Positions 815 to 27,690 are shown, counted from the first letter of the stretch. The stretch is 32,000 nt of DNA from Moraxellaceae bacterium AER2_44_116 (GCA_006546595.1 VIAD01000012.1:14122-46121); one strand, 5' to 3'. Notes: generated by a model not told the origin, from the sequence alone. Made by a program: numbers and translations.

Positions 815-829
815 GTAACCCTGCCAAAA
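815..829 (+). repeat. Module-boundary motif copy 1 (GTAACCCTGCCAAAA)
   Basis: Exact 15-mer lying 4 nt after the terminase stop codon. The same 15-mer occurs at 6214 and a 14/15 copy at 8136. Confidence 0.8.
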
Positions 830-880
830 TCAGCACATCACACAAGACATAATGCCATCAGGTTTATTTAGGATTGCGTT

Positions 881-2089
881 ATGTCTGTCATCATTTCCCC
901 TGTTATTACCAATGCAGGTTTAAGTGTCTTTACGCCGTCAGCCACGGGTATTGAGTTTACGTTTACCCATGTGGCGGTAGGTACAGGGACAAGTGCGGCT
1001 AGTTCGGCTGATACCGCCTTAGAACATGAAATTGCCCGATTCCCGATAGCAGGGGGTGGCATGGTCACGGGTGGCAGATCAGCATCTATTAATGTGCTAG
1101 TCACAAACCATCAAAATGCAAATCCACAAAACTATGATATTACCGAGGTTGGTTTTTATGGGCTTGATGGTGCAAACAACACTATTTTGTTTGCTATTTA
1201 TCGCCAAAATGCAGCAATTATCAGCAAAGTATCAGGTGGTGATATATCCGCGCCGTTTGTCATGGGTTTAGCGGCCTTGCCCGTCAATAACATGACAGTC
1301 CAGATTGATGCCAATACCAATGCGATGTTGGCATTGTTGGGGCAACATACCGCGTCTAATCATCCTCATACCCAATATAAACGCACTTTAGATAATAGTG
1401 AACGGTTGAAAATAGCCGCAGGTGTTGAGGTTGATGACGCGGTGAGTAAGGGACAATTGGAAGCTGAAGCAACCACACGGGCAGGTGTGGACTCAGCATT
1501 AGCAGGGCAGATAGCACAAGAGGTCTTAGACAGACAAGCAGGCGATTCATCACTTTCTCAAGCAATCAATTCTGAGGCGACTACACGGGCGGGTGTGGAC
1601 TCAGCATTAGCAGGGCAGATAGCACAAGAGGCTTTAGACAGACAGGCAGGCGACAACAACCTACAAACCCAAATCAATAATTTAACCCTTCAAATCATGA
1701 GTAAAACATGGCCAATTGGCTCAGTGTATGAAAATGAAGTGGATATGCGTAATCCAGCACACGCCGACTTGCTTGGCTTTGGCACGTGGATACCCACTCA
1801 ATATGGCCGTTTCAGTGTTGGTTATGCAGACACAGACCCTCAGTTTGGGGGTTTAGGTTGGGCGGGTGGTAACAGAAACCACAAAATGACGTTAGCCAAC
1901 TTAATTGAGCACGACCACGATTATACGGATAGAACGGAGCTTGATTATGCCGCAAGCAATAGCGTTGGACTGGGTACAGACCATAAAGATAGAGTGCTGA
2001 AAACGGGTAAAGCAGGGAGTGCCGACCCTGATCCTATTCCAACATTACCCCCTTATGTTGTTTCCGCCAAATGGCGAAGGACGGCATAA
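881..2089 (+). CDS. Tail fibre protein with a tail-collar-like C-terminal domain
   Basis: 402-aa ORF with AGGA 7 nt upstream of the ATG. It has two tandem 36-aa repeats (ATTRAGVDSALAGQIAQE.LDRQAGD). The C-terminus (WPIGSVY, GTWIP, HKMTLANLIEHDHDY, LPPYVV) resembles phage tail-collar/fibre domains. Confidence 0.7.
   Translation: MSVIISPVITNAGLSVFTPSATGIEFTFTHVAVGTGTSAASSADTALEHEIARFPIAGGGMVTGGRSASINVLVTNHQNANPQNYDITEVGFYGLDGANNTILFAIYRQNAAIISKVSGGDISAPFVMGLAALPVNNMTVQIDANTNAMLALLGQHTASNHPHTQYKRTLDNSERLKIAAGVEVDDAVSKGQLEAEATTRAGVDSALAGQIAQEVLDRQAGDSSLSQAINSEATTRAGVDSALAGQIAQEALDRQAGDNNLQTQINNLTLQIMSKTWPIGSVYENEVDMRNPAHADLLGFGTWIPTQYGRFSVGYADTDPQFGGLGWAGGNRNHKMTLANLIEHDHDYTDRTELDYAASNSVGLGTDHKDRVLKTGKAGSADPDPIPTLPPYVVSAKWRRTA
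1466..1681 (+). repeat. Tandem 108-nt (36-codon) duplication inside the tail fibre gene
   Basis: Unit 1 is 1466-1573 and unit 2 is 1574-1681. The ~70-nt core (acacgggc.ggtgtggactcagcattagcagggcagatagcacaagagg...) differs at only 3 positions between the units. Confidence 0.9.
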
Positions 2090-2364
2090 CCATGCTCACA
2101 GAAGCTCGACTTTATTCATTGATCCGCAATCTAGCCCAAACGACACCCGCATGGGCAACCGCGATTCGTTATCACACGAAGCCAGACGAGCGTTTTGACT
2201 TAACACTGGTCGCAAGACGGGCGTATGGCTTGCCGAGTGAGTGGCGCGTCATCATGGCGGCGGCTGGCTTACAAAGCGTGGATGAACCTTTGAACGAACA
2301 GTTGTTGGTATTACCCACACTGGAACAGTTGCAACGGCTTAAACGCAATACAGGAGCAATCTAA
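2071..2364 (+). CDS. Hypothetical phage protein (alternative start at ATG 2092)
   Basis: 97-aa ORF that overlaps the tail fibre stop when started at 2071. ATG 2092 removes the overlap. Its stop overlaps the next start (TAATG at 2362-2366), which suggests translational coupling. Confidence 0.55.
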   Translation: MAKDGITMLTEARLYSLIRNLAQTTPAWATAIRYHTKPDERFDLTLVARRAYGLPSEWRVIMAAAGLQSVDEPLNEQLLVLPTLEQLQRLKRNTGAI

Positions 2365-3497
2365 TGGCTCTTAAACCCCTGACACAAGCGGAGCAGGATG
2401 CCATTCTCAAGGCTTTTGGTGGTGGTAAGTCTAACTTTAAGCAAGGGGCAAGTCAGCGTAAGGCGTTTGACGAAAATCGCCGTGATAAGGCAGGTGAAGA
2501 TCCGTTAAGCATTATTTTGAGTGTTGATGATGTCAAAGGGCAATACGACACCTCACGCACGCTAATGACTACGATCGGCGGTAAACAGCGTGAGATTACA
2601 GGTTCAGACTTAGAAGCCTTTCGTCGAAACATCGACACAGTACGCAAGGCATTTAAGCAGGGCATTACCGCGAATCAAGTGCTCGATCTCAGTCTAAAAA
2701 TGGATTTAGATAACGCCAAAGCGCAAATCCACACGGCTATTCCTGTCAGGTACAAAGGCGATGTTTTGCACTTTATGACCAACGCGAGTAAAGAGTCCGA
2801 AGTCAGACAGCACTATGTCACGGTACGGTTTTTAGACCTTGGTGCAATCGCTACAACACCGATCCCGTTATTGACCGCGACTAAAACCGTAGCACAAGGT
2901 TATTTAGCCTTTGATTGTGATTGCGGCCGACACACCTTCTGGTATCGCTTTATTTCGACTATTGGCGGATTTAACGCAGGGCGGGCGGAAACAGGCTTTC
3001 CCAAGATTCGTAACCCGCACTTGTCAGGTGTGGCGTGTAAGCACGTTTTACGGGTGATGTTTTCGCTCAATCAGGCATTGGCCATTAGCAAAATTAAAGA
3101 GATGGTCAAGATTGTGCGGGCAAGTGCCAAACCATTAGAAGAGTTACCCGAAAACCAACTTTCAGCCAAAGAAGTCAAAGATGCCGCTAAACGCCAAGTA
3201 GAGAAGGCACACCATGACCGCAATCAGGTCAGGCGTAGTGTGGATGATCCTGTTAAGCAGCGTAAGGCCAAAAAAGAGGCTGAGAGGTTTGCTAAGGCCG
3301 CACAAACGGACGCACAAAAACAACGTGCCGAACGTAAGCGCATTATCGCTAATGGCTCGCCAATGGAGAAATTGAACCTACGGCGTGACCTAGAAAACAG
3401 AGTGAAAACCTTGCAGCGTGAATATGGCCAGACAAGCAATGAAAACTTGCTCGATGCAATGGAAAACTTACAAAACGATATTAACGGGTTGATTTAA
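2364..3497 (+). CDS. SWIM-like zinc-finger domain protein with a Lys/Arg-rich C-terminal tail
   Basis: 377-aa ORF. It carries a CxC-x37-CxH signature (FDCDCGRH...GVACKHVLRV). The C-terminus is strongly basic and coiled-coil-like (KQRKAKKEAERFAKAAQTDAQKQRAERKR). Confidence 0.55.
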   Translation: MALKPLTQAEQDAILKAFGGGKSNFKQGASQRKAFDENRRDKAGEDPLSIILSVDDVKGQYDTSRTLMTTIGGKQREITGSDLEAFRRNIDTVRKAFKQGITANQVLDLSLKMDLDNAKAQIHTAIPVRYKGDVLHFMTNASKESEVRQHYVTVRFLDLGAIATTPIPLLTATKTVAQGYLAFDCDCGRHTFWYRFISTIGGFNAGRAETGFPKIRNPHLSGVACKHVLRVMFSLNQALAISKIKEMVKIVRASAKPLEELPENQLSAKEVKDAAKRQVEKAHHDRNQVRRSVDDPVKQRKAKKEAERFAKAAQTDAQKQRAERKRIIANGSPMEKLNLRRDLENRVKTLQREYGQTSNENLLDAMENLQNDINGLI

Positions 3498-3499
3498 TC

Positions 3500-6217
3500 A
3501 TGTCAGACATTCGTATTGATGATGACGGTTTTTTAGTGGGTGATGGTGAGCAACAACGCACCGAAGCCGAAAACGTGCTCATGAAAGAGATTAAGACAGA
3601 CACCACAACCATTGTCAGTCTGCTAAAAGGTACGGCTAAGCTACAACGGGACGCATTAAAGGCGGCTCAAAGCGCAGTTAGTCCTAAGCCTAATGCCAAT
3701 GCTAACAGTGGGCAATCGTCACGGGTCAACTTAGTTCACCCAAACCGCGCAACACCCGCATCCCCCAGTAACGGGCAAGCCGCACCCATACCACCGACGG
3801 TCAGACCCAATCGACAAGGGGCAGGGGCTAATCCGCCGCCGATACCACAAGGAAGCAGTTCAAACGCAGGGAGTCCAGATACCGCACGGGCAAACCGCCA
3901 ACGTGGGGCAAATGGCCGTTTCATTGGCGATGGCACACAAGCCAATGACGAAAGCACGCAAGGAAACGGCAGCCGTGACAGCAGTGGCCGCTTTACGGGT
4001 GGCAATGGCGCAAATGCAGCCGACCGCAGCGCATCCTCTCGCATTACGGATGGCTTAAAAGACCTAAACAATACGCTTACAGTCAACGCCAACACCGACC
4101 GCATTGACCCAATGGTTGATGCCATCAAAGAAGCGGGTAGCATTATCAGTACGGGGGTAGAAGCCAGTAAAAAAGTATTAAGTGTCGGTAATACACTGAT
4201 TGCTAAACCTGCGATGGCGTTAGGCCGTGGCATTAAAGGATTGTTTAAGCCCAAGACGGACGTCATCAATTCACCTACGTCATGGTACAAGCGGATATGG
4301 CGCACATTGGTACAAGGCAACCGTCAAGACCATGCCGATCATAACCAAGAGCAACGGCGTTTAGATGAGATTGCCCGTGGTCAAGGTCAACGCAGCGGTG
4401 CGGATGGTGGCTTGCTTGGTTTGTTGGGTGTGGGTTTATTAGCAGGACTAGCGGCATTAAAACATCTTGATTTACCGAGCTTGCCTGAATTTTTAAAGAA
4501 AAAAGACAATAACGCGCCTGTTCCCGTTTTTCGTGCGCCCACCATGCCCGTCACGTCTTTACCTCCGACTCGCGCACAGTCCTTGGTCATGCGTATTGCC
4601 GATACAAAGGTTGGTAAGGCATTAGGCACATTTGTTAAACGATTGCCGATCATATCTTCAGTGTTGGCCGCAGGTTCAGGCGGCATTAACGCGGTCAATA
4701 TCAGTAAAGATAACAGTCTGAGTGAAGCAGAAAAAGAACGTGCTCAAGCAGCCAATGTGGGTAAGACAGTCGGGGCTATTGGCGGAGGTTTAGGGGGTAC
4801 GGCTGTTGGTGCAGCGATTGGTACGGCCATTTTCCCCGTTGTCGGGACAGTATTAGGCGGTTTAATTGGCTCATGGCTTGGCACAACAGGCGGTCAAATT
4901 GTTGGTGAAAAGGTTGGTGGTTGGGTCGATGATCTAGCTAATGCGGATATTGCAGGACGAATCAGTAACGCATGGAATGGGTTTCTTACGCCATTAACGC
5001 CGATCTTTACCGAGATTAAAGCCTATGCCCTTGGTCGTTTTGATGTCATAGGTAAGGTGTGGGACGGTTTTGTTGCTGAGACTAAGATGCAGTTCGGCGG
5101 CATCATGGCAGGCTTACAAGCGGTTGCCGATTTCTTTGGCCAAGTGGGTGACTTCTGGGGTGGTGTTGCCGATGCTGCGAATACATGGATTAAAGAAAAA
5201 ACAGGGATTGATGTTAAAGACAACCTGAAACGCTCAAAAAATGCGGTTAACGATTATGCAGGCCAAAAGCTAGACCAAGCAGGGCAGTTTTTAGGGGATG
5301 TGGGGAGTGCTGTCAAAGGTACGCCCATCGTGCAGGCGGCGACTGGCTTGTGGAATGGTTTGACGGGTGAAACGGCTAAGGAAAAAACATCAAAATCAAC
5401 ACAGGCCAATTACAATAAAAATAGTGCAGCTATCAACGATGCAGCAAAAAGAAACGGTTTAACGCCACAATTTATGGCGGGCGTTGCCTACACTGAAAGC
5501 TCTTTTAATGGTGGTGGTACAAAGGCGAATAGTTCAACTGCAACAGGGCTTTATCAATTTGTTGACGATACGTGGGCTGACCAAGTGGCACGAAGTAATG
5601 CCCCTGAAGCACAGCCATACAAAGCACAAGCACAAGCGTACCTTGCTGACAAAAATAAGGGAGTCCCACGGTCAAAAAGAAAAGAAACCTACAAAGCTTT
5701 ATTGTCAGCACGAAGCAATGACCAGCTAAATGCCGTTATTGGCGGGCAGTATCTTAGACAAGGATTAGATGCCCTTAAAAAATCGGGCGTTTCTAATCCT
5801 TCTATGGCTGAGGTTTATGCTTATCACCACGACGGCAATGCCCAACGAGTGATTGATGCACGTCATGGTGACAAGTCGGCTTTAGCACAATTAGAGCAAT
5901 GGGGTACTAAGTTAAACACGGGAGCGGCTTATGCTAAAAATATTCAAGCACCAACTGTATCACCCAAAGCAATTGCCACACCTACGGCGAACATGGCCAC
6001 AAACAGCGTACCAAGCATGAAGGCCGCACCCGTTAATGCCGTTCCTGTGCCGAATGTGCAGTCGATTCAATCCGTGCAGGCTAAAGAGCAACCGACACGG
6101 CTCAATAGCACGCCAACACCGATTAAAGTGTCATTTGCCAAGCCCTTAGTGGGGCAAAACGTGAGCGATCGAGGGATAGCACATATCTTGACGGGCGGCA
6201 TAGGTGAAACGGCGTAA
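3500..6217 (+). CDS. Internal virion/ejection protein with a lytic transglycosylase (SLT-like) domain
   Basis: 905-aa ORF. The N-terminus is low-complexity and rich in P/G/N/S. A Gly-zipper hydrophobic segment follows (GAIGGGLGGTAVGAAIGTAIFPVVGTVLGGLIGSWLG). An SLT-like motif is present (AYTESSFNGGG...ATGLYQFVDDTW). The TAA stop lies inside motif copy 2. Confidence 0.7.
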   Translation: MSDIRIDDDGFLVGDGEQQRTEAENVLMKEIKTDTTTIVSLLKGTAKLQRDALKAAQSAVSPKPNANANSGQSSRVNLVHPNRATPASPSNGQAAPIPPTVRPNRQGAGANPPPIPQGSSSNAGSPDTARANRQRGANGRFIGDGTQANDESTQGNGSRDSSGRFTGGNGANAADRSASSRITDGLKDLNNTLTVNANTDRIDPMVDAIKEAGSIISTGVEASKKVLSVGNTLIAKPAMALGRGIKGLFKPKTDVINSPTSWYKRIWRTLVQGNRQDHADHNQEQRRLDEIARGQGQRSGADGGLLGLLGVGLLAGLAALKHLDLPSLPEFLKKKDNNAPVPVFRAPTMPVTSLPPTRAQSLVMRIADTKVGKALGTFVKRLPIISSVLAAGSGGINAVNISKDNSLSEAEKERAQAANVGKTVGAIGGGLGGTAVGAAIGTAIFPVVGTVLGGLIGSWLGTTGGQIVGEKVGGWVDDLANADIAGRISNAWNGFLTPLTPIFTEIKAYALGRFDVIGKVWDGFVAETKMQFGGIMAGLQAVADFFGQVGDFWGGVADAANTWIKEKTGIDVKDNLKRSKNAVNDYAGQKLDQAGQFLGDVGSAVKGTPIVQAATGLWNGLTGETAKEKTSKSTQANYNKNSAAINDAAKRNGLTPQFMAGVAYTESSFNGGGTKANSSTATGLYQFVDDTWADQVARSNAPEAQPYKAQAQAYLADKNKGVPRSKRKETYKALLSARSNDQLNAVIGGQYLRQGLDALKKSGVSNPSMAEVYAYHHDGNAQRVIDARHGDKSALAQLEQWGTKLNTGAAYAKNIQAPTVSPKAIATPTANMATNSVPSMKAAPVNAVPVPNVQSIQSVQAKEQPTRLNSTPTPIKVSFAKPLVGQNVSDRGIAHILTGGIGETA

Positions 6218-6228
6218 CCCTGCCAAAA
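6214..6228 (+). repeat. Module-boundary motif copy 2 (GTAACCCTGCCAAAA)
   Basis: Identical 15-mer to 815-829. Its TAA (6215-6217) is the stop codon of the 905-aa CDS. Confidence 0.8.
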
Positions 6229-6288
6229 GCGATAGTTAGCAAGCTTTACACTGAGTACATAATTTTATTCGGTGTAAGGCTTAAACAC

Positions 6289-7131
6289 ATGAAGCTCAAT
6301 GATCCTAATTTTCCAACATCCACTATAAATCCTACGCTAACCGATAAGGCATTAGGTGTGATTGGTGGTTTGGTCAAATTAATGACCTTTCAACAGATTA
6401 AGAATTTGATCGGTATTACCGTTGAAAACGTGCTCAATTCAACCAATACCGTTAATGCGTTATCTGCCGCACAAGGCAAGATGTTAAATGATGCTTTAGC
6501 TCAGAAATTAGATATTTCGTCTTATAACGAGCATTACAAAGGTACATTTACTAATGATGCCGACTTAAAAACAGAACATTCTACTGCCAATCTAGGCAAC
6601 TTTGCTCTCGTCGATGCAGGGACAGGTGACAACGCCCATGTTTATATTTGGGACGCTCAAGAAGGTTGGGTACAAGGTGGCCAAACTAGCTTACTCAATA
6701 CGGATGCACTTGCGGAGGGTGGTACTAATAAATACTTTACCAACGCCCGTGTCAAAAGTGCGTTCGTGCGAGAGGACGCGACTTTTGCAGCAACCGCTTT
6801 AGCCAGTAATGCCTCATCAACGAATATGGTCAACATCGCCGCTCGCTATCAGCTATTACACATTACAACGAGTCATCCTTGCCGCGTTCGTCTCTATGCC
6901 TCAGTCGCTCAACGCGATGCCGACTTAACCAGACCGATCGGCACATACCCTACAGGCAATCACGGTTTGCTCTTTGAGTTTATTAGCACGTCCGAATTGC
7001 TGAGTGCCGATTTATCACCACTGGTTGACGGGTTTTCTAACTCGGTGGCCATTCCCTACAGCGTCACTAATTTAAGTGGGGTAACACAAACCATCACCGT
7101 GACATTGAATCACGTTAAAACAGGAGCTTGA
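6289..7131 (+). CDS. Putative tail fibre/receptor-binding-like structural protein
   Basis: 280-aa ORF at the start of the next module. The Asn/Thr/Ala-rich fibre-like N-terminus and its position next to other tail genes support the call. Function is inferred from context only. Confidence 0.45.
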   Translation: MKLNDPNFPTSTINPTLTDKALGVIGGLVKLMTFQQIKNLIGITVENVLNSTNTVNALSAAQGKMLNDALAQKLDISSYNEHYKGTFTNDADLKTEHSTANLGNFALVDAGTGDNAHVYIWDAQEGWVQGGQTSLLNTDALAEGGTNKYFTNARVKSAFVREDATFAATALASNASSTNMVNIAARYQLLHITTSHPCRVRLYASVAQRDADLTRPIGTYPTGNHGLLFEFISTSELLSADLSPLVDGFSNSVAIPYSVTNLSGVTQTITVTLNHVKTGA

Positions 7132-7135
7132 TGAT

Positions 7136-7996
7136 ATGGCTACTTCCATTTTTGGGTGCGCAACAAGTAGTGGCAATGATGCAGAATTCAGAGCCGCAGG
7201 TAGTGCCATTTCAGCGGCTTTGAGTGGCATGTTGACCCGTGTGACGACATCCAGTGACATCAATTGGGCAACAGTCGCAAGACCAACGACGGATAATACA
7301 TTTGAAGCAACATTCGATGTTTTTCGTTTTAATGATGCCGCACAAGCGACACATCCGCTATTTCTGAAGTTTGAATATGGTCGCTACACCAGCACATCAC
7401 CTATTCATATTCGCTTAACGATTGGTAAAACGTGTAGCGGTGCGGGTGTATTGGGAGGGATTGTTTTTCCTGCTACGGTCATTACGTCATATAGTGCGGG
7501 TGCATCTTCTACGATATACAGCTCATATATTAGTAACGGTGATGGCCATTGTTTATGTTTGGCAATAACCCCTGCAAATAATGCCATCCTGTTAATGATT
7601 GAACGAGCCATTGATAGTAATGGTGCAGTGCTAGGTAACGGTCTGTGGGTGGCATTTAAAAGTGAAGGCACAATGACAAACTATTTTTGTGCTTACGATT
7701 CGGGGGCAAATACAAATTACACGGGTGGTATTTTCCCATCCTTGTCACCTCTTAGCTCTGGTCAATCCTTTGCGAACGGTTCGATTACGCCCTATTTTCC
7801 AGCCGCGTGTTTTGCGCCTAATGGTTTGTATTGGATTCCCCGTGCGGCATTGGGTGGTGCATTGGCTGATTGTTCTTTGGGTACTACACGATCAGCACTA
7901 TTAGATGGTAATACGTATTTAGGCGTTGGCAATGCGGGTAGATTCAGCGACCAACGTGGCCAAAGTTATTCTGGGTTATTGATGCGTTGGAGTTAA
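7136..7996 (+). CDS. Hypothetical virion protein (Gly/Ser/Thr/Ala-rich)
   Basis: 286-aa ORF starting 5 nt after the previous stop. No recognisable catalytic motif. Confidence 0.5.
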   Translation: MATSIFGCATSSGNDAEFRAAGSAISAALSGMLTRVTTSSDINWATVARPTTDNTFEATFDVFRFNDAAQATHPLFLKFEYGRYTSTSPIHIRLTIGKTCSGAGVLGGIVFPATVITSYSAGASSTIYSSYISNGDGHCLCLAITPANNAILLMIERAIDSNGAVLGNGLWVAFKSEGTMTNYFCAYDSGANTNYTGGIFPSLSPLSSGQSFANGSITPYFPAACFAPNGLYWIPRAALGGALADCSLGTTRSALLDGNTYLGVGNAGRFSDQRGQSYSGLLMRWS

Positions 7997-8139
7997 TGAT
8001 GATTTATACTGTATTTCATTGGTATCCCTCTCCGTTATACACATACGCCGAAACGGGAGGTGTCATTTATGTGTCATTCAATCGACTCGCCCAAGACCCG
8101 CCGCCGTTGAGTGGGCAGATTTGGCCGCGTGGCAAGTAA
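7996..8139 (+). CDS. Small hypothetical ORF (47 aa), not in the supplied ORF track
   Basis: The ATG overlaps the upstream TAA by 1 nt (TAATG). It reads MMIYTVFHWYPSPLYTYAETGGVIYVSFNRLAQDPPPLSGQIWPRGK. Its TAA stop lies inside motif copy 3, as happens for the 905-aa CDS. Confidence 0.35.
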   Translation: MMIYTVFHWYPSPLYTYAETGGVIYVSFNRLAQDPPPLSGQIWPRGK

Positions 8140-8150
8140 CCCTGCCCAAA
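8136..8150 (+). repeat. Module-boundary motif copy 3 (GTAACCCTGCCCAAA)
   Basis: 14/15 identical to copies 1 and 2. It lies at the end of a run of coupled ORFs. Confidence 0.75.
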
Positions 8151-8177
8151 CAGCAGCAGACCATCCATTAAACTAAT

Positions 8178-8209
8178 GCCTAACTCCTCATTAAGAGATA
8201 GGCGTTTTT
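8178..8209 (+). terminator. Intrinsic-terminator-like hairpin plus T-run
   Basis: GCCTAACTC (8178-8186) pairs with GAGATAGGC (8195-8203) with one A.A mismatch and an 8-nt loop. It is followed by G and TTTTT (8205-8209), just before ATG 8213. Confidence 0.4.
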
Positions 8210-8212
8210 ATC

Positions 8213-9118
8213 ATGCCCAAGACTTCTAAAATCACGTTTAACGTAAACGAGTTACAACGCCAACACACAGGCCAACGGCGGTGCTATGACAATGTGGGTT
8301 TGGCGCGTCTCATCAATTCACCAGAAATTCAAGAGCGTGTCAGCAAAGGCGACCTGATTGGCTATTATGGCCATTGGCCGCGTAAAAAGTTTGGAATGCA
8401 GCCGCAAGAAGGCGGCATGGATGGCAGCAAGCCGATCACCTTAAAACCTGCTATTCGCACCACGTTCTTAGAAGCTGATAACAAAGGCAACCTCACGCAT
8501 CAAACCGAGTTTTTAGATACACAAGAAGGCAAAGATGCCTATGACCTGTTTCAAAACAAAGTCGGCGGCTTTAGTGCGGCAATGACAACGGCACCTAAAG
8601 GTGTAACCGAGATACCCGTTCGATTTTATGGCTTTGATTATGTGCTTGAGCCTAACTTTAGCGGTAATCGTGGCTATACGATGGCGTTTGATAGTGTGCC
8701 GAATGATTCATTGATTTTAGAGCGTTTTGATTCAATCAATGATGAGGGTGATACGGGTGAGTTGATCCACGTTTTTGATAGTGTTGAAGATGAAGTGTTA
8801 TATCAAAATCAAGTCATGGGTGACTTGTATCGTCGATTGCAGGGTGATTATCGCCATGTTTTAGATAGTGCAGGCGCAATGTCAGGTGAGAAAGCACACT
8901 TAGAACAGACCATTCAAGAGATGCTAGATAAGCAAGCGAAGCAGGGTAAACGTAGCAGCCGAAGTCCTATTTTTATTGATGAACGGAAAATAGCTCGTTT
9001 TGATGAGGCGAATTCGTTTATGACGGCGGATTTGGTGAGTCTTGATATGGACGATGATAAAGACATTCGTGCCGAAAAAGCCAAAATTGCTCAGGCTAAA
9101 CGCCGTTATGGGTACTAA
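8213..9118 (+). CDS. Hypothetical head-morphogenesis protein (possible prohead protease/scaffold fusion)
   Basis: 301-aa ORF. GYYGHW and VGGFSAAM could be the His and Ser motifs of an S78/HK97-type prohead protease. The acidic, coiled-coil C-terminal half looks scaffold-like. The assignment is weak. Confidence 0.35.
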   Translation: MPKTSKITFNVNELQRQHTGQRRCYDNVGLARLINSPEIQERVSKGDLIGYYGHWPRKKFGMQPQEGGMDGSKPITLKPAIRTTFLEADNKGNLTHQTEFLDTQEGKDAYDLFQNKVGGFSAAMTTAPKGVTEIPVRFYGFDYVLEPNFSGNRGYTMAFDSVPNDSLILERFDSINDEGDTGELIHVFDSVEDEVLYQNQVMGDLYRRLQGDYRHVLDSAGAMSGEKAHLEQTIQEMLDKQAKQGKRSSRSPIFIDERKIARFDEANSFMTADLVSLDMDDDKDIRAEKAKIAQAKRRYGY

Positions 9119-9120
9119 TC

Positions 9121-9882
9121 ATGGCTGATTTATTTCTACCCGTGAAAATTGGCTTAGGCGAATACATGGGGCGGTTTAAGCAATCGTTTGCGGTTACTCA
9201 TAACGACACGAACGCGGTACAAGAATTTGCAGCACGACCTCTTGAGCAAGCCTGCATTGTCTTTGCACCGTCACGGATGGCTGACGCGATAGAAGAAGTG
9301 CTCAGTGCATGGCGAAAAAATACCAATGAAAACGGCAAAGCACAAAGTACCGCTTTTTTGCCCGTCATGGCCATTGCCGTTGCCCGTGACTATACGCCCG
9401 CATCGCCCAGTCAAGGCATGATGTTGGGTGATGCGATTGATATTAAGATTCCCCATTATCCCGATGAACGCAGCTTAAAGCTTGAATTGATCCGTGGTCA
9501 ATTGCGCGTACAAGTGGTGGTGATTGCCGCCGATGACAGTACCGCTAAAAGCTTAATAGCGCGGTTTTGCCATTTTGTGCGCCGTTATGATAACCGTGGC
9601 TTTGATGCGATTTATTCACTCGCAGGGGTTAATGACGCTTGGTTTAACGCTTGGGATAGTCAAGACCTTTATCCATCGGCTGTCACCATCGCCCAGACCA
9701 ACCTCGCCATTCAAAAGGTGGATTTGATGTTGAACATCGCTATCCCGATGGTTTACGGCGCGGCCAGTGGTCAACCCAATAGCGGTATCGGTACAGGAAC
9801 GCCAAATGATCCATTTGGCTTGAGTGTTTTAACGCAAATCAATGTAGGGCAATTAAATATGTCCGATAAGGAGTTGGTATGA
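9121..9882 (+). CDS. Hypothetical virion protein
   Basis: 253-aa ORF starting 3 nt after the previous stop. Its stop overlaps the next start (ATGA). Confidence 0.5.
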   Translation: MADLFLPVKIGLGEYMGRFKQSFAVTHNDTNAVQEFAARPLEQACIVFAPSRMADAIEEVLSAWRKNTNENGKAQSTAFLPVMAIAVARDYTPASPSQGMMLGDAIDIKIPHYPDERSLKLELIRGQLRVQVVVIAADDSTAKSLIARFCHFVRRYDNRGFDAIYSLAGVNDAWFNAWDSQDLYPSAVTIAQTNLAIQKVDLMLNIAIPMVYGAASGQPNSGIGTGTPNDPFGLSVLTQINVGQLNMSDKELV

Positions 9883-10409
9883 GTGAACCCCTAAGAATCC
9901 GCGCCATTGTGCAGGGTTATCAAGGCGATATGTTGTGTATTTATGCGGCAATGGACGAAGCCAGTGGTTTATTGCTTATCGACCGTGCCGAAAAGTTTGA
10001 TGAAAATATGGAGATTACGCCTGATTTAACGATCTTGACCAATGTGCCATTGTTGCCTAGTTGGACGATGTTTTTTAAGGAAGAGCAGCTTAAACAGGCG
10101 ATTGATGCGTACCACACGTTAACGGGTAATGGCTTATTGGACATTGAATCAAATATGCAGCGTTACAATCCTATGGGCGCGATTCAAGTCAATGGCATGA
10201 AGGAAAGCGGCATCGAGTACCGTTTTACTGAGTTAAACAATGGTCATGTTGGGGTGTTGATCTGTGCCTTGTTTGCCGAAAAGCAGCGCAACATTCGAGC
10301 GAGTTTAGCCGCACAAGTGAATATGCTGAATCCACCGACTCCATTACCTTACGCGCAACAGCGAGAGAGTTTTGTGGTTAAGCCTATGAGTGTCGGCTAC
10401 TTTTTTTAA
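9879..10409 (+). CDS. Hypothetical phage protein
   Basis: 176-aa ORF with AAGGAG upstream and an ATGA overlap with the preceding CDS. Confidence 0.5.
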   Translation: MSEPLRIRAIVQGYQGDMLCIYAAMDEASGLLLIDRAEKFDENMEITPDLTILTNVPLLPSWTMFFKEEQLKQAIDAYHTLTGNGLLDIESNMQRYNPMGAIQVNGMKESGIEYRFTELNNGHVGVLICALFAEKQRNIRASLAAQVNMLNPPTPLPYAQQRESFVVKPMSVGYFF

Positions 10410-10420
10410 GGTGAATCATT

Positions 10421-18757: not shown

Positions 18758-18778
18758 GTTAATTCATGGAGAGGCGAC

Positions 18779-19069
18779 ATGATGGTATTGGTGAGTTACG
18801 ATGTCTGTTTTCAAAATGATACAGGAGCACGTCGGTTGCGAAGAATAGCAAAAGCTTGCTTAGATTATGGGCAAAGGGTGCAGTATTCGATCTTTGAGAT
18901 TGAGGTAACGCCAGCACAATGGACAATGTTACGGAGTCGCTTATTACAAGAAATTGATCCTGAAGTAGATAGTTTGCGATTTTATTTTTTAGGAAAAAAT
19001 TGGCAGCCAAAGGTTGAACATATTGGAGCTAAGGCTGTTTTGGATTTGAATGGCCCATTGATTTTTTAG
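18779..19069 (+). CDS. cas2: Cas2
   Basis: 96 aa. The MMVLVSYDV... N-terminal beta-strand motif and the position after cas1 support the call. Confidence 0.92.
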   Translation: MMVLVSYDVCFQNDTGARRLRRIAKACLDYGQRVQYSIFEIEVTPAQWTMLRSRLLQEIDPEVDSLRFYFLGKNWQPKVEHIGAKAVLDLNGPLIF

Positions 19070-19257
19070 GCTTGTAGAACATCTGCGAACCTTAAGTAAG
19101 CATTAAAATGCAGGTAGGTTCGCACCTTGTTTTTTGCATATAAAACAAGGTGCTCTTTAAAACTATATTTTTTATTCTAGATGATTGTTCGGTTTCATTA
19201 TGTGTTCGCATTTTAGTGGAAGATGTGCATTTGAAAACAGTATGTTATAACTAGACT
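19070..19257 (+). promoter_or_regulatory. CRISPR leader (AT-rich)
   Basis: 188 nt between the cas2 stop and the first repeat. It is AT-rich. Repeats read ...ATTGAAAC on the + strand, and the degenerate repeat is at the far end. This fixes the leader at this end and + strand transcription. Confidence 0.8.
19084..19153 (+). terminator. Two overlapping stem-loops just downstream of cas2
   Basis: TGCGAACCT (19084-19092) pairs with AGGTTCGCA (19116-19124). GCACCTTGTTTT (19122-19133) pairs with AAAACAAGGTGC (19142-19153) across an 8-nt loop, followed by T/A-rich sequence. The two stems share 3 nt, so they are mutually exclusive. Confidence 0.45.
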
Positions 19258-22200
19258 GTCGCGTCCTCACGGGCGCGTGGATTGAAACGCCTTTTTTAAG
19301 AGCTGTCTTAACGACCGCCACGTCGCGTCCTCACGGGCGCGTGGATTGAAACGTCGGTTGTTGATGATGATGGAATGCCGTTTGATCCGGTCGCGTCCTC
19401 ACGGGCGCGTGGATTGAAACCATTGAAATAACGTGACCTTGCGCTGCATAAACGGGTCGCGTCCTCACGGGCGCGTGGATTGAAACGGCAATTTATCCAA
19501 CGCACAGACAGGCATATTAGGCGTCGCGTCCTCACGGGCGCGTGGATTGAAACGGCTTTATATTTAGCGCAAGATTTTAAAATCTATTGTCGCGTCCTCA
19601 CGGGCGCGTGGATTGAAACTTAACAGGTTTATCAACCGATGCAAACGCTAGTCGTCGCGTCCTCACGGGCGCGTGGATTGAAACATCAAATGTACGACCG
19701 TATTATTGTCCTCAACAAGTCGCGTCCTCACGGGCGCGTGGATTGAAACGTCCCTACGCTCATCGTCGTGTAACACTCGGCTGTTGTCGCGTCCTCACGG
19801 GCGCGTGGATTGAAACAACTGACCGCTAGCACCGTCACTAATGAAAAAGTCGCGTCCTCACGGGCGCGTGGATTGAAACACTCAACAGTACACCCCTGTC
19901 GATGTCCCTAAAGGTCGCGTCCTCACGGGCGCGTGGATTGAAACTACGCCTATTGGTAATGTAATGTTGATTGCTGCAAGTGTCGCGTCCTCACGGGCGC
20001 GTGGATTGAAACAGTTTAAGGAATTATGGCAGATTAAAGCCTTGCCATGTCGCGTCCTCACGGGCGCGTGGATTGAAACACTAATGATGCCGATGGTCTT
20101 GCGTATGCTTATGAGTCGCGTCCTCACGGGCGCGTGGATTGAAACAGCGTATTAAAAACCAAACAAGGCGCGTCTTTAAGGTCGCGTCCTCACGGGCGCG
20201 TGGATTGAAACTATCGTGTAATAGAGTCGTTGGTTATTGTGTCGATGTCGCGTCCTCACGGGCGCGTGGATTGAAACAACGGACCCGATGGCGCATTGGT
20301 ATTGGCAAATGGTCGCGTCCTCACGGGCGCGTGGATTGAAACTGCTTGTGTAAGTCGATTTACGGATAACTGTGCTCGGTCGCGTCCTCACGGGCGCGTG
20401 GATTGAAACACCCGATGACGGTTTGCGTAACGTCACACTGGTGTCGCGTCCTCACGGGCGCGTGGATTGAAACGGCAGCGAGAGCAATTGACAAGGAAAG
20501 ATCTGCATTGTCGCGTCCTCACGGGCGCGTGGATTGAAACAATGCGCGGCACAATAATGAATCTGTGGCCTGGGTCGCGTCCTCACGGGCGCGTGGATTG
20601 AAACTAGGTTGTGAATAACAACTGCTATGAAAAACACGTCGCGTCCTCACGGGCGCGTGGATTGAAACTAGTGAGTGTTGGCCCACCTGTATCAAGAGCT
20701 AATCGTCGCGTCCTCACGGGCGCGTGGATTGAAACATGCAGTATGTAGCAGGTGAATCCCGTTTTATCCGTCGCGTCCTCACGGGCGCGTGGATTGAAAC
20801 ATCGTCTTGAGTTATCAACTCACCAACAACTGATGGTCGCGTCCTCACGGGCGCGTGGATTGAAACTTTGCTTGCAGTGTGGTAGCGATTTCCAGCATTT
20901 CGTCGCGTCCTCACGGGCGCGTGGATTGAAACATTCGCCAATTGCTGATGATAGTTATCGTCGTATTGTCGCGTCCTCACGGGCGCGTGGATTGAAACAT
21001 TAAAAGAACAAATAAAAAGCGGATGCAATAGCGTCGCGTCCTCACGGGCGCGTGGATTGAAACTACTTGGCCTGCCAATGTGTCACGGGCTTGGTTTAAG
21101 TCGCGTCCTCACGGGCGCGTGGATTGAAACTGCATAACGGGCGTGACTAACGGTTTTACTAGGTCGCGTCCTCACGGGCGCGTGGATTGAAACTTGTGCG
21201 GGATAGTTAAAGCCGCAAAAATCAACAGTCGCGTCCTCACGGGCGCGTGGATTGAAACTTTACCGCTCCAAAAAATCCCATTCAATTGATACGGTCGCGT
21301 CCTCACGGGCGCGTGGATTGAAACGTCTGATAACTCATCAATGCCAAAATGTTTTTTTAGTCGCGTCCTCACGGGCGCGTGGATTGAAACTTCAAAATTG
21401 AAAGCGATGATTTAAGATAAACGTGTGTCGCGTCCTCACGGGCGCGTGGATTGAAACAAATATGCTTTGGGAATTTCTCAAGAATCCTGAGTCGCGTCCT
21501 CACGGGCGCGTGGATTGAAACTTTTATTGTCATTGTCATTTTTTGAATCCTCATGCTGTCGCGTCCTCACGGGCGCGTGGATTGAAACATTTGATACGCC
21601 AAAAAATACGCAATTTAAAGTTGTCGCGTCCTCACGGGCGCGTGGATTGAAACGTGGTCTTGGCCAATGCCTTGAAACTTACTGTCGTTGCGTCGCGTCC
21701 TCACGGGCGCGTGGATTGAAACACCACGTAAGTGATATTTGTGCGAGTAATAGTTAATGTCGCGTCCTCACGGGCGCGTGGATTGAAACATTTAGTGCTT
21801 TTTCGCCACGATCTTCATATGGCTCACGTCGCGTCCTCACGGGCGCGTGGATTGAAACAATCGCCTACAAGAGCAATTTACAGGGAAATATGCGTCGCGT
21901 CCTCACGGGCGCGTGGATTGAAACCGCTATTTTGTATGCCTGACGCACTAGCATCACTATGTCGCGTCCTCACGGGCGCGTGGATTGAAACTTATACTAC
22001 GCGATATATAGCAACAGTGAAAAGAACGTCGCGTCCTCACGGGCGCGTGGATTGAAACGTTCGGACTGCCGCCATATCGCGCAATACAAGCCTGTCGCGT
22101 CCTCACGGGCGCGTGGATTGAAACGGGTATTGGTGGATTTTGATTTTGTGAAACGTGGGGGGTCGCGTCCTCACGGGCGCGTGGATTGAAACAAGCCTAC

Positions 22201-25200
22201 GCGCCCAAATCAAACAATTAACGGTACGTCGCGTCCTCACGGGCGCGTGGATTGAAACGGTGTTGTTCGTCGTTATGGTGCGAGTCAATCCAATGTCGCG
22301 TCCTCACGGGCGCGTGGATTGAAACATTGGGACTACCACCGTATCTCGCTATACAAGCTTGTCGCGTCCTCACGGGCGCGTGGATTGAAACTTAATCAGT
22401 CCGTCCTTTTTCCCGTTTTTATCAATGTCGCGTCCTCACGGGCGCGTGGATTGAAACTCAGCACAAATACGACTTAGATTTTTATAGCATCGTCGCGTCC
22501 TCACGGGCGCGTGGATTGAAACTTCTAAAGCCGATACTGTTCAATCTGCTTCTAAAGTCGCGTCCTCACGGGCGCGTGGATTGAAACATATAGTCAGGAA
22601 ATTTACTACGTAATTTAAACTGGTCGCGTCCTCACGGGCGCGTGGATTGAAACTCTAGCTCGTTAAGCTGATCTGTTATCGCTTTCTTTGTCGCGTCCTC
22701 ACGGGCGCGTGGATTGAAACGTTTTGATGGCAGACCAAAAGCCGAAGAAGCGTGGGCGTCGCGTCCTCACGGGCGCGTGGATTGAAACCCGTGATGAGAT
22801 ACACCTTTCCAGATTTTGGCTTAGTCGCGTCCTCACGGGCGCGTGGATTGAAACTCTGCACTGATAGAGATATTTGTTTTACTCTTTGAGGTCGCGTCCT
22901 CACGGGCGCGTGGATTGAAACTTGTTGATAGCAATAAAATCCCGTTAGATATGGCAGGTCGCGTCCTCACGGGCGCGTGGATTGAAACACATCATGGCGG
23001 CGACTATAGCAAGATAAAAACGGTCGCGTCCTCACGGGCGCGTGGATTGAAACCCATCACAGCGATAATAAGCACTCATTTTTTAACAAGTCGCGTCCTC
23101 ACGGGCGCGTGGATTGAAACAAAGTGGCATAAACCGCTTTGAAGTAGTCGTTAAAGTCGCGTCCTCACGGGCGCGTGGATTGAAACGTCGAAATGTGAAC
23201 GATGCGCCAAGAGGCGGCAAGTCGCGTCCTCACGGGCGCGTGGATTGAAACACGACAATACCAAGATTTTTACGGCAATAATTTAGGTCGCGTCCTCACG
23301 GGCGCGTGGATTGAAACCTCTATCTCTAGAAGTATCAAACCTTTCTCTAGAGCGTCGCGTCCTCACGGGCGCGTGGATTGAAACAAAAACGCCTACAAGC
23401 TCACTGTCGAGGCTGTAATGGTCGCGTCCTCACGGGCGCGTGGATTGAAACAGACAACAAGCCGTTAACCATTGGGATGACCTCATGTCGCGTCCTCACG
23501 GGCGCGTGGATTGAAACCACTATGACGGTGTCGGGGGAGTTGTTGACTCCAGTCGCGTCCTCACGGGCGCGTGGATTGAAACGTTCTGTCGTTGTTCAGT
23601 GTCTAGGGTCTAACGAAGTCGCGTCCTCACGGGCGCGTGGATTGAAACATTGTGGCAAATTCCGTGACACTTGGGCTTATAATTCGTCGCGTCCTCACGG
23701 GCGCGTGGATTGAAACCGTCTTTGTGTGGCTCTGCTACGCGTAAACCTGCCATGTCGCGTCCTCACGGGCGCGTGGATTGAAACTAGTCCCTTATCGCGT
23801 CTTTGAAACACTCACAAATGTCGCGTCCTCACGGGCGCGTGGATTGAAACTTTAGATCGTAGTAAGTTTGAATATTTACATAAAGTCGCGTCCTCACGGG
23901 CGCGTGGATTGAAACAGGGATTATCTCTTGAGGCGCAGATTATCTACCTGCGTCGCGTCCTCACGGGCGCGTGGATTGAAACGGGCGGCACATGGGCGGC
24001 TGGTTTATCGCAATCAATGTCGCGTCCTCACGGGCGCGTGGATTGAAACTCAATTTTGGCATAAGCAACAACATCTGCGCGTGTGTCGCGTCCTCACGGG
24101 CGCGTGGATTGAAACGACATATTCCATTTTGTTTGACCGGGTGTCGTGAGTCGCGTCCTCACGGGCGCGTGGATTGAAACTTCGTAGGTGTCACTTGGTG
24201 TATAAGAACAGGAAACGTCGCGTCCTCACGGGCGCGTGGATTGAAACATGTTCGTCATCGAAAATTTGATTTTTATTAGGTCGCGTCCTCACGGGCGCGT
24301 GGATTGAAACAGCGAATGCCCGTCAGAACTACATTTTGCTAATAAGTCGCGTCCTCACGGGCGCGTGGATTGAAACAGCCGTAACCACTGTACGCACGGT
24401 ATTTGAACAATGTCGCGTCCTCACGGGCGCGTGGATTGAAACGCCTGTAGCCGCATCAGCCACCGCCTCGACCATCTGTCGCGTCCTCACGGGCGCGTGG
24501 ATTGAAACTTTGACGCTCGGCATTAGTTGGTGATGTTTTGTTGTCGCGTCCTCACGGGCGCGTGGATTGAAACGACGCATGGCCGACTAGCCCACTTGCT
24601 TCTCATAGTCGCGTCCTCACGGGCGCGTGGATTGAAACGTCATCAGTTACGCCTTTGTAGCGTGTTTGATCTTGTCGCGTCCTCACGGGCGCGTGGATTG
24701 AAACCTATTTTTGGTAAATATAACGCGGCAAACACGCAAGTCGCGTCCTCACGGGCGCGTGGATTGAAACATTGAATGTGACATGGATTTTTGTGCATCA
24801 CGTTCGGTCGCGTCCTCACGGGCGCGTGGATTGAAACTTCTTCGGAGACTTGGCGCATTGGCTTACGTTGACGTCGCGTCCTCACGGGCGCGTGGATTGA
24901 AACCATTAAACTCGCACCCCTAAAATTTTATAAACATGTCGCGTCCTCACGGGCGCGTGGATTGAAACCATTGTCAAGCCCTCAATATTTACATAGCTAA
25001 TATGTCGCGTCCTCACGGGCGCGTGGATTGAAACACAGATGCACGTTTGTGGTCTTGGTCGTTATCAAGTCGCGTCCTCACGGGCGCGTGGATTGAAACC
25101 GCCTGAAACGCGCTAAATTCCTCGTCTTTTTGCTTGTCGCGTCCTCACGGGCGCGTGGATTGAAACTCGCATGAAAGCTCATGCAGTGCTGAATGTGCCG

Positions 25201-27687
25201 GTCGCGTCCTCACGGGCGCGTGGATTGAAACCTAAACCTGACGGCTTTGAAGATGAAAGCGAAGTTGTCGCGTCCTCACGGGCGCGTGGATTGAAACATG
25301 GGTTTGATGTAACTGAGATTTGAGTTAAGAAAGTCGCGTCCTCACGGGCGCGTGGATTGAAACAGTAGCATATCCGCCGTATGCAGTTTATCTTGGTAGT
25401 CGCGTCCTCACGGGCGCGTGGATTGAAACGCGCTAAAGCTCGTCGCATCAAGAAAAAACACGGCGCGTCGCGTCCTCACGGGCGCGTGGATTGAAACAGC
25501 TAAAGATACTTTATCTTCGACCCACACATCACGTCGCGTCCTCACCGGGCGCGTGGATTGAAACAAAAGTACCGTACACAACCATACAGAGGATACTAAC
25601 AGTCGCGTCCTCACGGGCGCGTGGATTGAAACTGTATAAGTACCATCGCCATCTGACCCACCACCAATACGTCGCGTCCTCACGGGCGCGTGGATTGAAA
25701 CGTATATATCGGCGCAGGTCGCCATTGATGACGGGGTGTCGCGTCCTCACGGGCGCGTGGATTGAAACACGGCAAGACGTAATTCAGGGTGCATATAGAT
25801 TTGTCGCGTCCTCACGGGCGCGTGGATTGAAACTTTTATTCGCGGCTTTAAATATGAGGAATGTGGTTGTCGCGTCCTCACGGGCGCGTGGATTGAAACA
25901 AAAAATGAAAGTCACACTCAAAAAAGCCAAGTCACGTCGCGTCCTCACGGGCGCGTGGATTGAAACCAAACATTCGCCATCTTCATTTTCTAATGTTGTC
26001 CGGTCGCGTCCTCACGGGCGCGTGGATTGAAACGGGTGTTAGCAGGCGATGGTTAACAATAGGGAAATGTCGCGTCCTCACGGGCGCGTGGATTGAAACG
26101 TCTGTGCTGTTTTTAGGTCAAACATATCAAGGCAAGTCGCGTCCTCACGGGCGCGTGGATTGAAACATAAACACAATTTTATTTTATTTGAAGTTCATAC
26201 AAGGTCGCGTCCTCACGGGCGCGTGGATTGAAACTGGTGCTGTTGTGCGCATTGATGCAGGCGCGGCAGAGTCGCGTCCTCACGGGCGCGTGGATTGAAA
26301 CCCAAAGTTACATTGATTGAACGTAAATGAGTCAGTGTCGCGTCCTCACGGGCGCGTGGATTGAAACGGTGGTTGTTGATATTTATATTGAATCATTGGC
26401 TGGTCGCGTCCTCACGGGCGCGTGGATTGAAACATTCAGTGTAGCCACATCATCTAAGCGCATTTTGTGTCGCGTCCTCACGGGCGCGTGGATTGAAACA
26501 TAGCATACGCTCAGAAAGTGCCGAGCAAGATATTGGTCGCGTCCTCACGGGCGCGTGGATTGAAACAATTTGATGCGTACATTTTTGCAGCCGATTACGA
26601 CGTCGCGTCCTCACGGGCGCGTGGATTGAAACCGCCAACCGTGTGCCTAAAAATCTTAGTGCCTTGTCGCGTCCTCACGGGCGCGTGGATTGAAACAACT
26701 GTCCACCCCAAAGCCGCCGACTCAGGACTAGTCGCGTCCTCACGGGCGCGTGGATTGAAACACAACATTTGCAGCGCGTACCTGTTTTGACTTCATGTCG
26801 CGTCCTCACGGGCGCGTGGATTGAAACGTCTTAAACGACATAACCAACGCACTAAAATAGTCGTCGCGTCCTCACGGGCGCGTGGATTGAAACGCTGCAT
26901 CTTCTAATGACGAAGCCAAAATCAGGTACGTCGCGTCCTCACGGGCGCGTGGATTGAAACCCAGAGATGGCCGCAAAAGCTAAAGCGGTCATGTGTCGCG
27001 TCCTCACGGGCGCGTGGATTGAAACCTCGTACAACTTTAGACACGCAACCGCACCGACAAGTCGCGTCCTCACGGGCGCGTGGATTGAAACCAATTGGTT
27101 TGGGTGCGGCAAAAAGACAGAGCCTTGTCGCGTCCTCACGGGCGCGTGGATTGAAACTGTCGATTCAGGCTCAAAGGGGGGCACTTGCATACGTCGCGTC
27201 CTCACGGGCGCGTGGATTGAAACAATTGAATTGCTTACGGTGATAGAACTATCAATGGGTCGCGTCCTCACGGGCGCGTGGATTGAAACTTGAATTCGAC
27301 ACGCCAAAAAACTTATACAACCCTGGTCGCGTCCTCACGGGCGCGTGGATTGAAACAACGCTGGACAGATTGATAGCAAAACGACAATGGAGTCGCGTCC
27401 TCACGGGCGCGTGGATTGAAACATGTCGGTGAATTTGTCTAGTGTTAGACCGCCGTGTCGCGTCCTCACGGGCGCGTGGATTGAAACATGATTAAGCAGC
27501 AAGCGTGAAGATACTGCTGAAGCGTCGCGTCCTCACGGGCGCGTGGATTGAAACTACCTCCCGTATTTGCTCTTTTACCCAATGAGTCTGTCGCGTCCTC
27601 ACGGGCGCGTGGATTGAAACATCTACGCCGCCAATCATGCAAATGCCGAGGCTAAGTCGCGTCCTCACGGGCGCGTGGATTTGTAAC
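19258..27687 (+). CRISPR. Type I-C CRISPR array: 128 repeats (127 consensus-length plus 1 degenerate terminal) and 127 spacers
   Basis: Hand enumeration of every repeat start, from 19258, 19322, 19390 ... to 27590 and 27656. The 31-nt repeat GTCGCGTCCTCACGGGCGCGTGGATTGAAAC has a GCGTCC/GGGCGC stem, a TCAC loop and a 3' ATTGAAAC tag. Spacers are 32-38 nt and the mean period is about 66 nt. One repeat (25533-25564) carries an extra C. The last repeat matches for 26 nt and then diverges. Confidence 0.99.
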
Positions 27688-27690
27688 CCT
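27683..27690 (+). repeat. Partial boundary-motif copy (GTAACCCT) fused to the terminal repeat
   Basis: The sequence reads ...GCGCGTGGATT-TGTAACCCTCGAACAAAC. The first 8 nt of the phage boundary motif begin 2 nt after the point where the last repeat stops matching. GTAAC could instead be a mutated GAAAC repeat end. Confidence 0.35.

Follow-up and report, generated by a model that had tools for sequence, protein, structure and literature searches.

Why does one short sequence recur at the borders of successive gene modules in a phage that has also taken up a CRISPR (clustered regularly interspaced short palindromic repeats)-Cas system? The question is raised by a stretch of 32,000 nucleotides (nt) from Moraxellaceae bacterium AER2_44_116 (VIAD01000012.1:14122-46121; hereafter 'the window', meaning this whole stretch), which comes from a biofilm metagenome and belongs to a distant P1-like myophage, the host of which was probably an Agitococcus-like member of the Moraxellaceae. 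A preliminary description of the window had placed the motif at the 3' end of each gene module, and listed as candidate roles a promoter or terminator, an RNA processing site, and a boundary sequence for modular recombination. We argue here that the motif, GTAACCCT(nn)cAAAA, probably serves a family of phage late promoters as their upstream recognition element, and that it lies in hairpin-containing units that would insulate neighboring blocks of genes from one another.

The box and its distance to a -10-like hexamer

The pattern GTAACCCTGCCMAAA is matched exactly at 815-829, 6214-6228 and 8136-8150, all on the + strand, so that the three 15-mer copies first reported are all real instances of it. 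With up to three mismatches allowed there are nine matches in the window where 1.7 are expected, and none of 100 shuffled sequences gets to nine; the 8-mer core GTAACCCT has four copies (815, 6214, 8136 and 27683) and none on the minus strand, with 0.43 expected and no shuffle reaching four. We refer to these four copies as boxes A to D, and to each box together with the hexamer and hairpin that follow it as a unit. Box A (GTAACCCTGCCAAAA, 815-829, +) comes 3 nt after the stop codon of a PacB-like terminase gene (TAG, 809-811) and before a baseplate/tail operon starting at 881. Box B (6214-6228, +) supplies in its own TAA (6215-6217) the stop codon of a Sit-like SLT-domain gene (3500-6217) and precedes the tail-fibre gene at 6289, while the TAA of box C (GTAACCCTGCCCAAA, 8136-8150, +) at 8137-8139 ends a small open reading frame (ORF; 7987-8139). 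The reported placement of stop codons at or just before the box is correct at all three sites, as are the gaps from box to next start codon, which measure 51, 60 and 62 nt. Box D (GTAACCCTCGAACAA, 27683-27697, +), that of a darA/darB-like operon, adjoins the truncated last repeat of the CRISPR array, and it had been suspected that its GTAAC might be no more than a mutated GAAAC repeat end. This is ruled out by relatives without the array, which have GTAACCC(T/C) at the same place followed by the same downstream sequence; box D is genuine, and it is ancestral phage sequence.

The relatives compared, which we denote by locus numbers, are L118/L122 (97% protein identity to the window in the gp25-like gene), L116/L123 (86%), L117/L128 (75%) and the Agitococcus locus L138 (74%). 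The site set drawn from the window and four relatives (five genomes) comprises 26 sites in nine orthologous classes, with the box at orthologous sites ahead of late operons in all five, so that the proposal to look for it in relatives gave a positive answer; box A, for instance, has orthologues in L118, L116, L128 and L138, and the final eight codons of the small ORF that ends in box C show protein-level conservation in L128. Across the set the box has the form GTAACCCT-nn-cAAAA: positions 1-7 (GTAACCC) do not vary between sites, 21 of the 26 have T at position 8, position 13 is A in 24 and position 14 is A in every site, position 15 is A or T, and the bases between the core and the A-run vary. 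Each related genome carries three to six copies on the + strand, and a single minus-strand copy occurs, in L138. Isolated copies of so short a sequence do arise by chance, and when IMG/VR was scanned for exact copies of the 15-mer, the matches among 80 loci listed of at least 115 were chance ones, one to a contig, apart from one true relative. That the box is a compositional repeat without function nevertheless has a negligible probability, given the shuffling results, the strict strand bias, the intergenic placement, the orthologous-site conservation in five genomes and the fixed spacing described next; conservation in relatives already refutes it.

A sigma-70 -10-like hexamer, xAxxxT, stands at offset 33 in 22 of the 26 sites and at offset 34 in the remaining four, that is, 25-26 nt after GTAACCCT, whereas at most other offsets the same pattern is found in zero to four sites (with a lesser rise at offsets 44-54, peaking at 14/26 at offset 44). 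In the window, all on the + strand, the hexamers are CATAAT in unit A (848-853, 25 nt after GTAACCCT), TACACT in unit B (6247-6252; TATAGT or TACACT in relatives), TAAACT in unit C (8169-8174) and TACCCT in unit D (27716-27721), the last being identical to the annotated -10 of P1 LPpac; the others observed across the set are TATAGT, TATCCT, GACAAT, AATAAT, CAGCAT, CACACT, GATAAT and CAAAAT. The 18 bases from A-run to hexamer are unconserved, even between orthologues, and blastn homology restarts at the hexamer, as it does in unit D against both L118 and L116. A -35 hexamer is absent from all 26 sites, positions 11-16 of which read cAAAAn and not TTGACA, and the structural region contains fewer full sigma-70 promoters than expected (nine versus 17.7).

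All + strand units head virion or packaging operons, namely those for the tail tube, portal/terminase, baseplate, Sit-like protein and fibres, and the dar operon; four of these units heading late operons are in the window. The sites linked to PacB and DarA adjoin homologues of the P1 genes served by LPpac, according to its annotation, and by LPdar. Among the candidate roles first listed it is therefore that of a promoter that is upheld, by the fixed distance to a -10-like hexamer, by strand specificity and by position upstream of late operons.

The same cannot be said for a role in ending the module upstream, whether as part of a terminator or as a 3'-end mark, although this was the reading that the window suggested at first sight: in the window the boxes coincide with upstream stop codons or are no more than 4 nt away from them, and terminator-like hairpins with T-runs follow boxes C and D. 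In L138 two divergent boxes stand back to back at 4217 (-) and 4235 (+), 18 nt apart, and the minus-strand box, which is followed by a CACACT hexamer of its own and by small ORFs, has no co-directional gene upstream, so that the box is better regarded as a 5' element of the module that follows. Conversely, the dar operon closes with an ordinary intrinsic terminator and no box. The box itself has no dyad symmetry, lies outside every predicted hairpin and is 25-45 nt upstream of them; G+C-rich hairpins with T-runs do not follow boxes A and B; and in L118 the site D box is 72 nt downstream of the point where homology to the window's upstream gene ends. We consider a terminator or 3'-end role very unlikely.

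Some further observations concern individual sites. In L138 (3896-4235) two small ORFs of ~36 and 30 amino acids (aa) follow the minus-strand unit, in place of a 272-aa gene of L128. In L116 there are two copies of GTAACCCT before the tail-tube operon, at 1138 and 1186 and thus 48 nt apart, the second of which lacks a -10-like hexamer at the fixed spacing, stands 22 nt ahead of an ATG and may be a vestigial or duplicated box. At L121 5697-5705, ~1.2 kb past the position of the window's end, a Logan contig breaks off with …CCTGTAACC, just beyond a minus-strand ORF and the classic terminator that closes the dar operon, and this end may be the next promoter box. A match within the gp25-like gene of the window (GTAACCCG, 3010-3017, +; GTAACCCT in L117 and L118) was rejected as a coding coincidence with no -10 after it.

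The box was missing from more distant relatives in beta- and other gammaproteobacteria. The cultured Acinetobacter phage vB_AbaM_ABMM1 (OQ471969.1; L167 and L168), by comparison, has ~15 sites of the form TGGAAC(C/T)-N28-xAxxxT, with the hexamer at offset 34, that precede its structural operons, its holin/lysin operon and a RusA/HTH (helix-turn-helix) operon, and none before the genes of its minus-strand early region; most of these units continue with a hairpin, a T-run and an ATG. Seven TGGAACC sites of the same design, all on the + strand, are present in an Alkanindiges prophage (L155). The box of these two Moraxellaceae phages differs by one base from that of the window, and the family as a whole shares a box core TG(G/T)AACC. 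We found no earlier description of the box in the literature, and the ABMM1 paper does not discuss promoters; the ABMM1 promoter family is new relative to that paper. The HTH_19 protein gp68, encoded downstream of the ABMM1 unit at 59517, is a possible candidate regulator, though Pfam scans of the ABMM1 candidate regulators gave generic HTH matches only.

Hairpins and a late-promoter model

The predicted folds show a strong hairpin at most of the 26 sites. Its 5' arm is made up of the hexamer and the bases that come next, and its 3' arm contains the Shine-Dalgarno sequence or the start codon. Hairpin A (845-886, +) pairs the -10 hexamer in its 5' arm with the ATG at 881 in its 3' arm (-15 to -16 kcal/mol), and hairpin B (6241-6282, +) pairs the hexamer-bearing arm with one that includes an AAGG Shine-Dalgarno (-20 to -24 kcal/mol, z -4 to -4.8). 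Hairpin C (8175-8206, +) is terminator-like, being followed by a T-run at 8207-8211 that ends 1 nt before the start codon at 8213. In hairpin D (27717-27752 and a T-run, together 27717-27756, +) the core arms are CCTAGTCGTAA and TTACGACTAGG, the 5' arm overlapping the -10 and the 3' arm including an AGGTG Shine-Dalgarno ahead of the ATG at 27759. Hairpin energies in the window range from -13 to -24 kcal/mol and vary with the stretch folded. RNA that keeps the 5' arm would fold there with -13 to -20 kcal/mol, and RNA begun ~7 nt past the hexamer, which would lose that arm, with just -1 to -6 kcal/mol. At most of the 26 sites z lies between -3 and -6.5, and at a minority it is weaker (about 0 to -2.6). 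Pairing is retained between orthologous sites despite different arm sequences: at site A, four of 15 pairs show compensatory change on both sides across five orthologues, and the arms at the site of the portal operon are ACACA/TGTGT in L118 versus AACGCTAA/TTAGCGTT in L138. The T-run of units C and D is also seen in many ABMM1 units, and ends 1-3 nt ahead of the ATG. A simple terminator scan overlooked the unit hairpins, as their loops exceed 8 nt.

A conserved linear motif followed at most sites by a hairpin 20-30 nt further on also invites comparison with boxA and boxB of nut sites, and it might be supposed that the box acts in RNA, where transcripts would be processed or an antiterminator loaded. 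The tandem operons lie on one strand, so read-through RNA would include the box, and indications of antitermination in P1 have been noted in a review (PMC10695390). However, the hairpin sequences vary between sites, unlike boxB; it is the distance from box to hexamer that is fixed, while that from box to hairpin is variable; and neither the minus-strand box of L138 nor the ABMM1 boxes that come after opposite-strand genes have a co-directional transcript upstream. An RNA-level role seems to us improbable.

We hypothesize instead that each unit starts one late operon. Counted from the -10 hexamer, the box would span positions of about -45 to -38 and the A-run those of about -33 to -30, and a phage-encoded factor, either an activator or a sigma-region-4-like adaptor, would read the box and recruit host RNA polymerase to a promoter without a -35; it is the missing -35 hexamer that would make such a factor necessary. 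RNA initiated at the promoter would lack the 5' arm and be translated, while in RNA reading through from upstream the hairpin would form, so that this RNA would be terminated or left untranslated. The units might in this way insulate successive late modules from each other and, at unit D, insulate the dar operon also from the RNA of a newly inserted CRISPR array.

Several observations sit uneasily with this model. A second hexamer occurs at offset 44 in sites B and D (TAACTT in site D), making second start points possible, and unit B further contains a weak sigma-70 pair, TTAGCA-16-CATAAT (6236-6263), 11 nt past the box-linked hexamer, which renders its start point ambiguous. The 26 sites represent just nine independent orthologous classes. 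Hairpins A and B have no T-run, so that 'terminator' fits only some of the units. An asymmetric box placed one helical turn upstream of a normal -35 fits no characterized factor, and searches of the window, its relatives and the complete ABMM1 genome by tblastn and phmmer --max found no homologue of Lpa, the P1 late-promoter factor, bearing in mind that the window phage genome is incomplete and that Lpa is small and fast-evolving. For its part, L116 has at the place of the unit B sigma-70 pair the sequence TTGGCA-16-CATATT.

The late promoters of P1 that depend on Lpa are the closest known system in logic and in lineage, though the feature that defines them is lacking here. The resemblance is considerable: the phage lineage is the same and PacB-, gp25- and DarA_N-type genes are present; in P1, too (LPpac, LPdar, LP26, LPhot and others), a -10 hexamer without a -35 is combined with a conserved upstream box, in several copies per genome that each head a late operon; and LPpac and site D even have the same -10, TACCCT. 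The P1 box, however, is a 9-bp inverted repeat (ATGTGACTT, AAGTTACTT, AAATGACTA) annotated as the -22 region and 4-9 nt from the -10, whereas the GTAACCCT..AAAA of the window is asymmetric and 25-26 nt away, and across the 26 sites the stretch 4-9 nt before the hexamers shows no conservation. In position, the box is more like the activator sites of Mu. At the Mor-dependent promoter Pm and the C-dependent late promoters of Mu, the activator site overlaps the -35 region, centered about -41 to -43, next to a good -10 and a poor -35; yet the sites of these class II-type promoters are dyad-symmetric and bound by dimers, unlike the asymmetric box. The -35 elements of extracytoplasmic function (ECF) sigma factors, such as GGAAC and TGTAAC, are similar to the family core TG(G/T)AACC. 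An ECF-type promoter was rejected all the same, on a spacing of 27-28 nt as opposed to 16-17 and hence longer by one helical turn, a downstream xAxxxT that is not of the CGT type, and nothing conserved at the ECF -10 position.

For the hairpins, the precedent lies in T4, where genes e, soc, 49 and I-TevI have a late promoter in the 5' strand of a hairpin and the Shine-Dalgarno or AUG in the 3' strand, such that only RNA initiated upstream can fold, and so be silenced, whereas RNA from the promoter itself is translated (PMC3014915). Folding predicts this arrangement for most of the present sites as well. T4 uses a different promoter, TATAAATA with gp55 and gp33, and confines the arrangement to a few special genes; here, according to the predicted folds, it would be the standard design of most late operons examined, and several hairpins have T-runs in addition.

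Mosaic junctions and the CRISPR-Cas cassette

The most conspicuous neighbor of a unit is the type I-C CRISPR-Cas cassette upstream of box D. Since both L116 and L118 are without it, the insert can be delimited to 10891-27682 (+; 16.8 kb), comprising cas3, cas5, cas8c, cas7, cas4, cas1, cas2, a leader and 127 repeats. The type I-C gene set is complete by Pfam matches (cas3, cas5c, cas8c or Csd1, cas7, cas4, cas1 and cas2), with the cas operon at 11006-19069 and a G+C content in the cas genes of 38-42% versus 45-50% in the flanks. The array reaches 27686, its repeats being of the type GTCGCGTCCTCACGGGCGCGTGGATTGAAAC, 126 of them identical and the last truncated, with ~126 spacers that measure 32-38 nt. 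The L116 homologue of ORF 10421-10900 continues directly into the box (…GGTTTAT GTA ACC CCC TAA), followed by the box D promoter and the dar operon. The cassette is flanked by a TGT/GT micro-repeat, and its right end falls within the last CRISPR repeat (GGATT|TGTAACCCT), which puts the right junction at the 5' edge of box D. Because this exact junction can be seen, and because relatives 97% and 86% identical in the gp25-like protein are without the cassette, the alignments indicate that CRISPR-Cas was gained recently. No spacer matches the relatives compared, and a cas8c scan of IMG/VR found no further viral contig carrying the cassette.

The cassette had been described as one more module bounded by the motif on both sides, but the right edge alone adjoins a box. 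The supposed degenerate copy on the left (TTAACTTGCCAAAAAG, 10963-10978, +), 28 nt before the start of cas3, differs from the core at four of its eight bases, is not followed at the fixed spacing by a -10-like hexamer and lies inside the low-GC insert itself, and we reject it as a chance resemblance; the left junction has no box.

Box C marks the right edge of a second replaced segment (6488-8135, +), made up of the C-terminal part of a fibre gene and a chaperone cassette and non-homologous to both L118 and L116. Homology of the window to these two genomes stops inside the fibre gene that starts at 6289 (at 6488-6494) and restarts exactly at 8136, base 1 of box C; the genes downstream of the fibre in the swapped segment (7136-7996 and 7987-8139) are replaced in L118 and L116 by unrelated sequence, and the replacement looks like a host-range cassette swap. 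Virome contigs have a third, different flank adjoining 8136, and in L118 a non-homologous 203-aa gene likewise ends on a TAA within the box. At site S2, between G118 and G128, homology restarts at -1. Over all genome pairs, 19 of 114 high-scoring segment pairs (HSPs) start within -3 to +40 nt of a box, with ~1% expected, and four of them exactly at base 1, while HSP ends are rarely found at box units.

Such coincidences lend some substance to the proposal, made when the window was first described, that the box is a recombination or boundary sequence which mediated capture of the CRISPR-Cas system. As a short conserved linker it would allow recombination functions of phage or host to swap modules, in addition to or instead of acting as a promoter. 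The HSP starts, the restarts of homology at the box edge, the three or more different upstream flanks that adjoin box C, the two non-homologous upstream genes that both stop on its TAA, and the micro-repeat at the right junction of the cassette could all be read in this way, and a role of this kind is on record for the promoter-terminator cassettes called PeSLs in T4-like phages. PeSLs are likewise short units of promoter and stem-loop at module borders that match indel or replacement junctions between close relatives (PMC2839356, PMC4122927). They differ in having early sigma-70 promoters with both hexamers, in hyperplastic regions full of small ORFans, whereas the present units lack a -35 and serve late structural operons; and in PeSLs ~50-70 nt are conserved whole between copies, as against the 8-15 nt common to the sites within one genome here, which is short for homologous exchange. 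Exchange between orthologous sites could be served by the long conserved operon downstream. It should also be noted that the left junction of the cassette is without a box, and that a purely recombinational role leaves the fixed -10 spacing unexplained.

Above all, selection alone predicts the same junctions. The upstream genes stop either within the box or directly beside it, which leaves its 5' edge as the sole neutral insertion point, the only spot at which both the upstream gene and the promoter are spared, and for this reason junctions would gather there. Under the late-promoter model the CRISPR-Cas cassette and the swapped fibre cassettes would have joined at the 5' edge of the box with no special recombination activity required. 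The observation behind the boundary proposal thus stands, in that homology restarts and a cassette junction coincide with the box, and its explanation does not follow, as selection for the sole permissive insertion point accounts for the pattern equally well. We regard a recombinational role as unlikely. Somewhat less likely still, in our estimate, is the more specific idea that the box serves the Moraxellaceae phage gene pool as a 'module joint' at which late transcription starts and new cargo docks, through a phage recombination function or microhomology-driven exchange. No recombination joint is required by the data.

The phage lineage and what the units would mean for it

The gene content of the window (pacB, tail and baseplate genes, tail fibres, a darA/darB-like operon and the CRISPR-Cas cassette) is that of the P1-like lineage named at the outset. 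Bases 1-10900 encode the C-terminal part of the PacB-like large terminase and then a tail/baseplate/fibre block, including a Gp10_C baseplate protein, a gp25-like tail protein and the Sit-like SLT-domain protein. From 27759 onward there follow an InPase-DarA_N protein and a large ORF with an LPD1 domain, which is taken as DarB-like, the whole being an anti-restriction operon of the P1 dar type. At the protein level the top phage relatives in GenBank are ABMM1, Xanthomonas Rb1, D6 and P1 (33-45% identity), and the nearest relative among isolate genomes is a prophage contig of Agitococcus lubricus DSM 5822 (NZ_QAON01000024; Moraxellaceae), our L138. Neither GenBank phages nor PLSDB plasmids gave a megablast match to the phage parts, the lineage being absent from both collections; the sequencing runs that contain the element are metagenomes, and the darA-like gene is also present on a 5.7-kb Logan contig. 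Two of the runs bear an RNA label, one being a virome and the other a sparse wastewater set, and contigs showed no transcript ends.

The dar-type operon is highly variable (window 27759-32000; L121 1978-5163; L122 9992-21222; L123 9998-20932): the DarA_N/InPase protein has 579 aa in the window versus 1126-1165 aa in relatives, and the ORF after it, that with the LPD1 domain, 1061 aa versus 2175-2572 aa.

If the late-promoter model is right, the late operons of an uncultivated P1-like lineage, and of the cultured phage ABMM1 with it, could be delimited from sequence by TG(G/T)AACC, ~27 nt and xAxxxT, and the factor that reads the box, which is not recognizably Lpa-like, would be a clear target for discovery. 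A promoter inside a hairpin is known from few T4 genes; as the standard joint between late modules, it would be an economical means of insulating tandem operons. The design would also explain why foreign cargo piles up just upstream of the units, as the complete 127-repeat type I-C CRISPR-Cas system and the alternative tail-fibre cassettes do. Should the module-joint idea prove true as well, one short sequence would be at once the start of late transcription and the docking point for new cargo.

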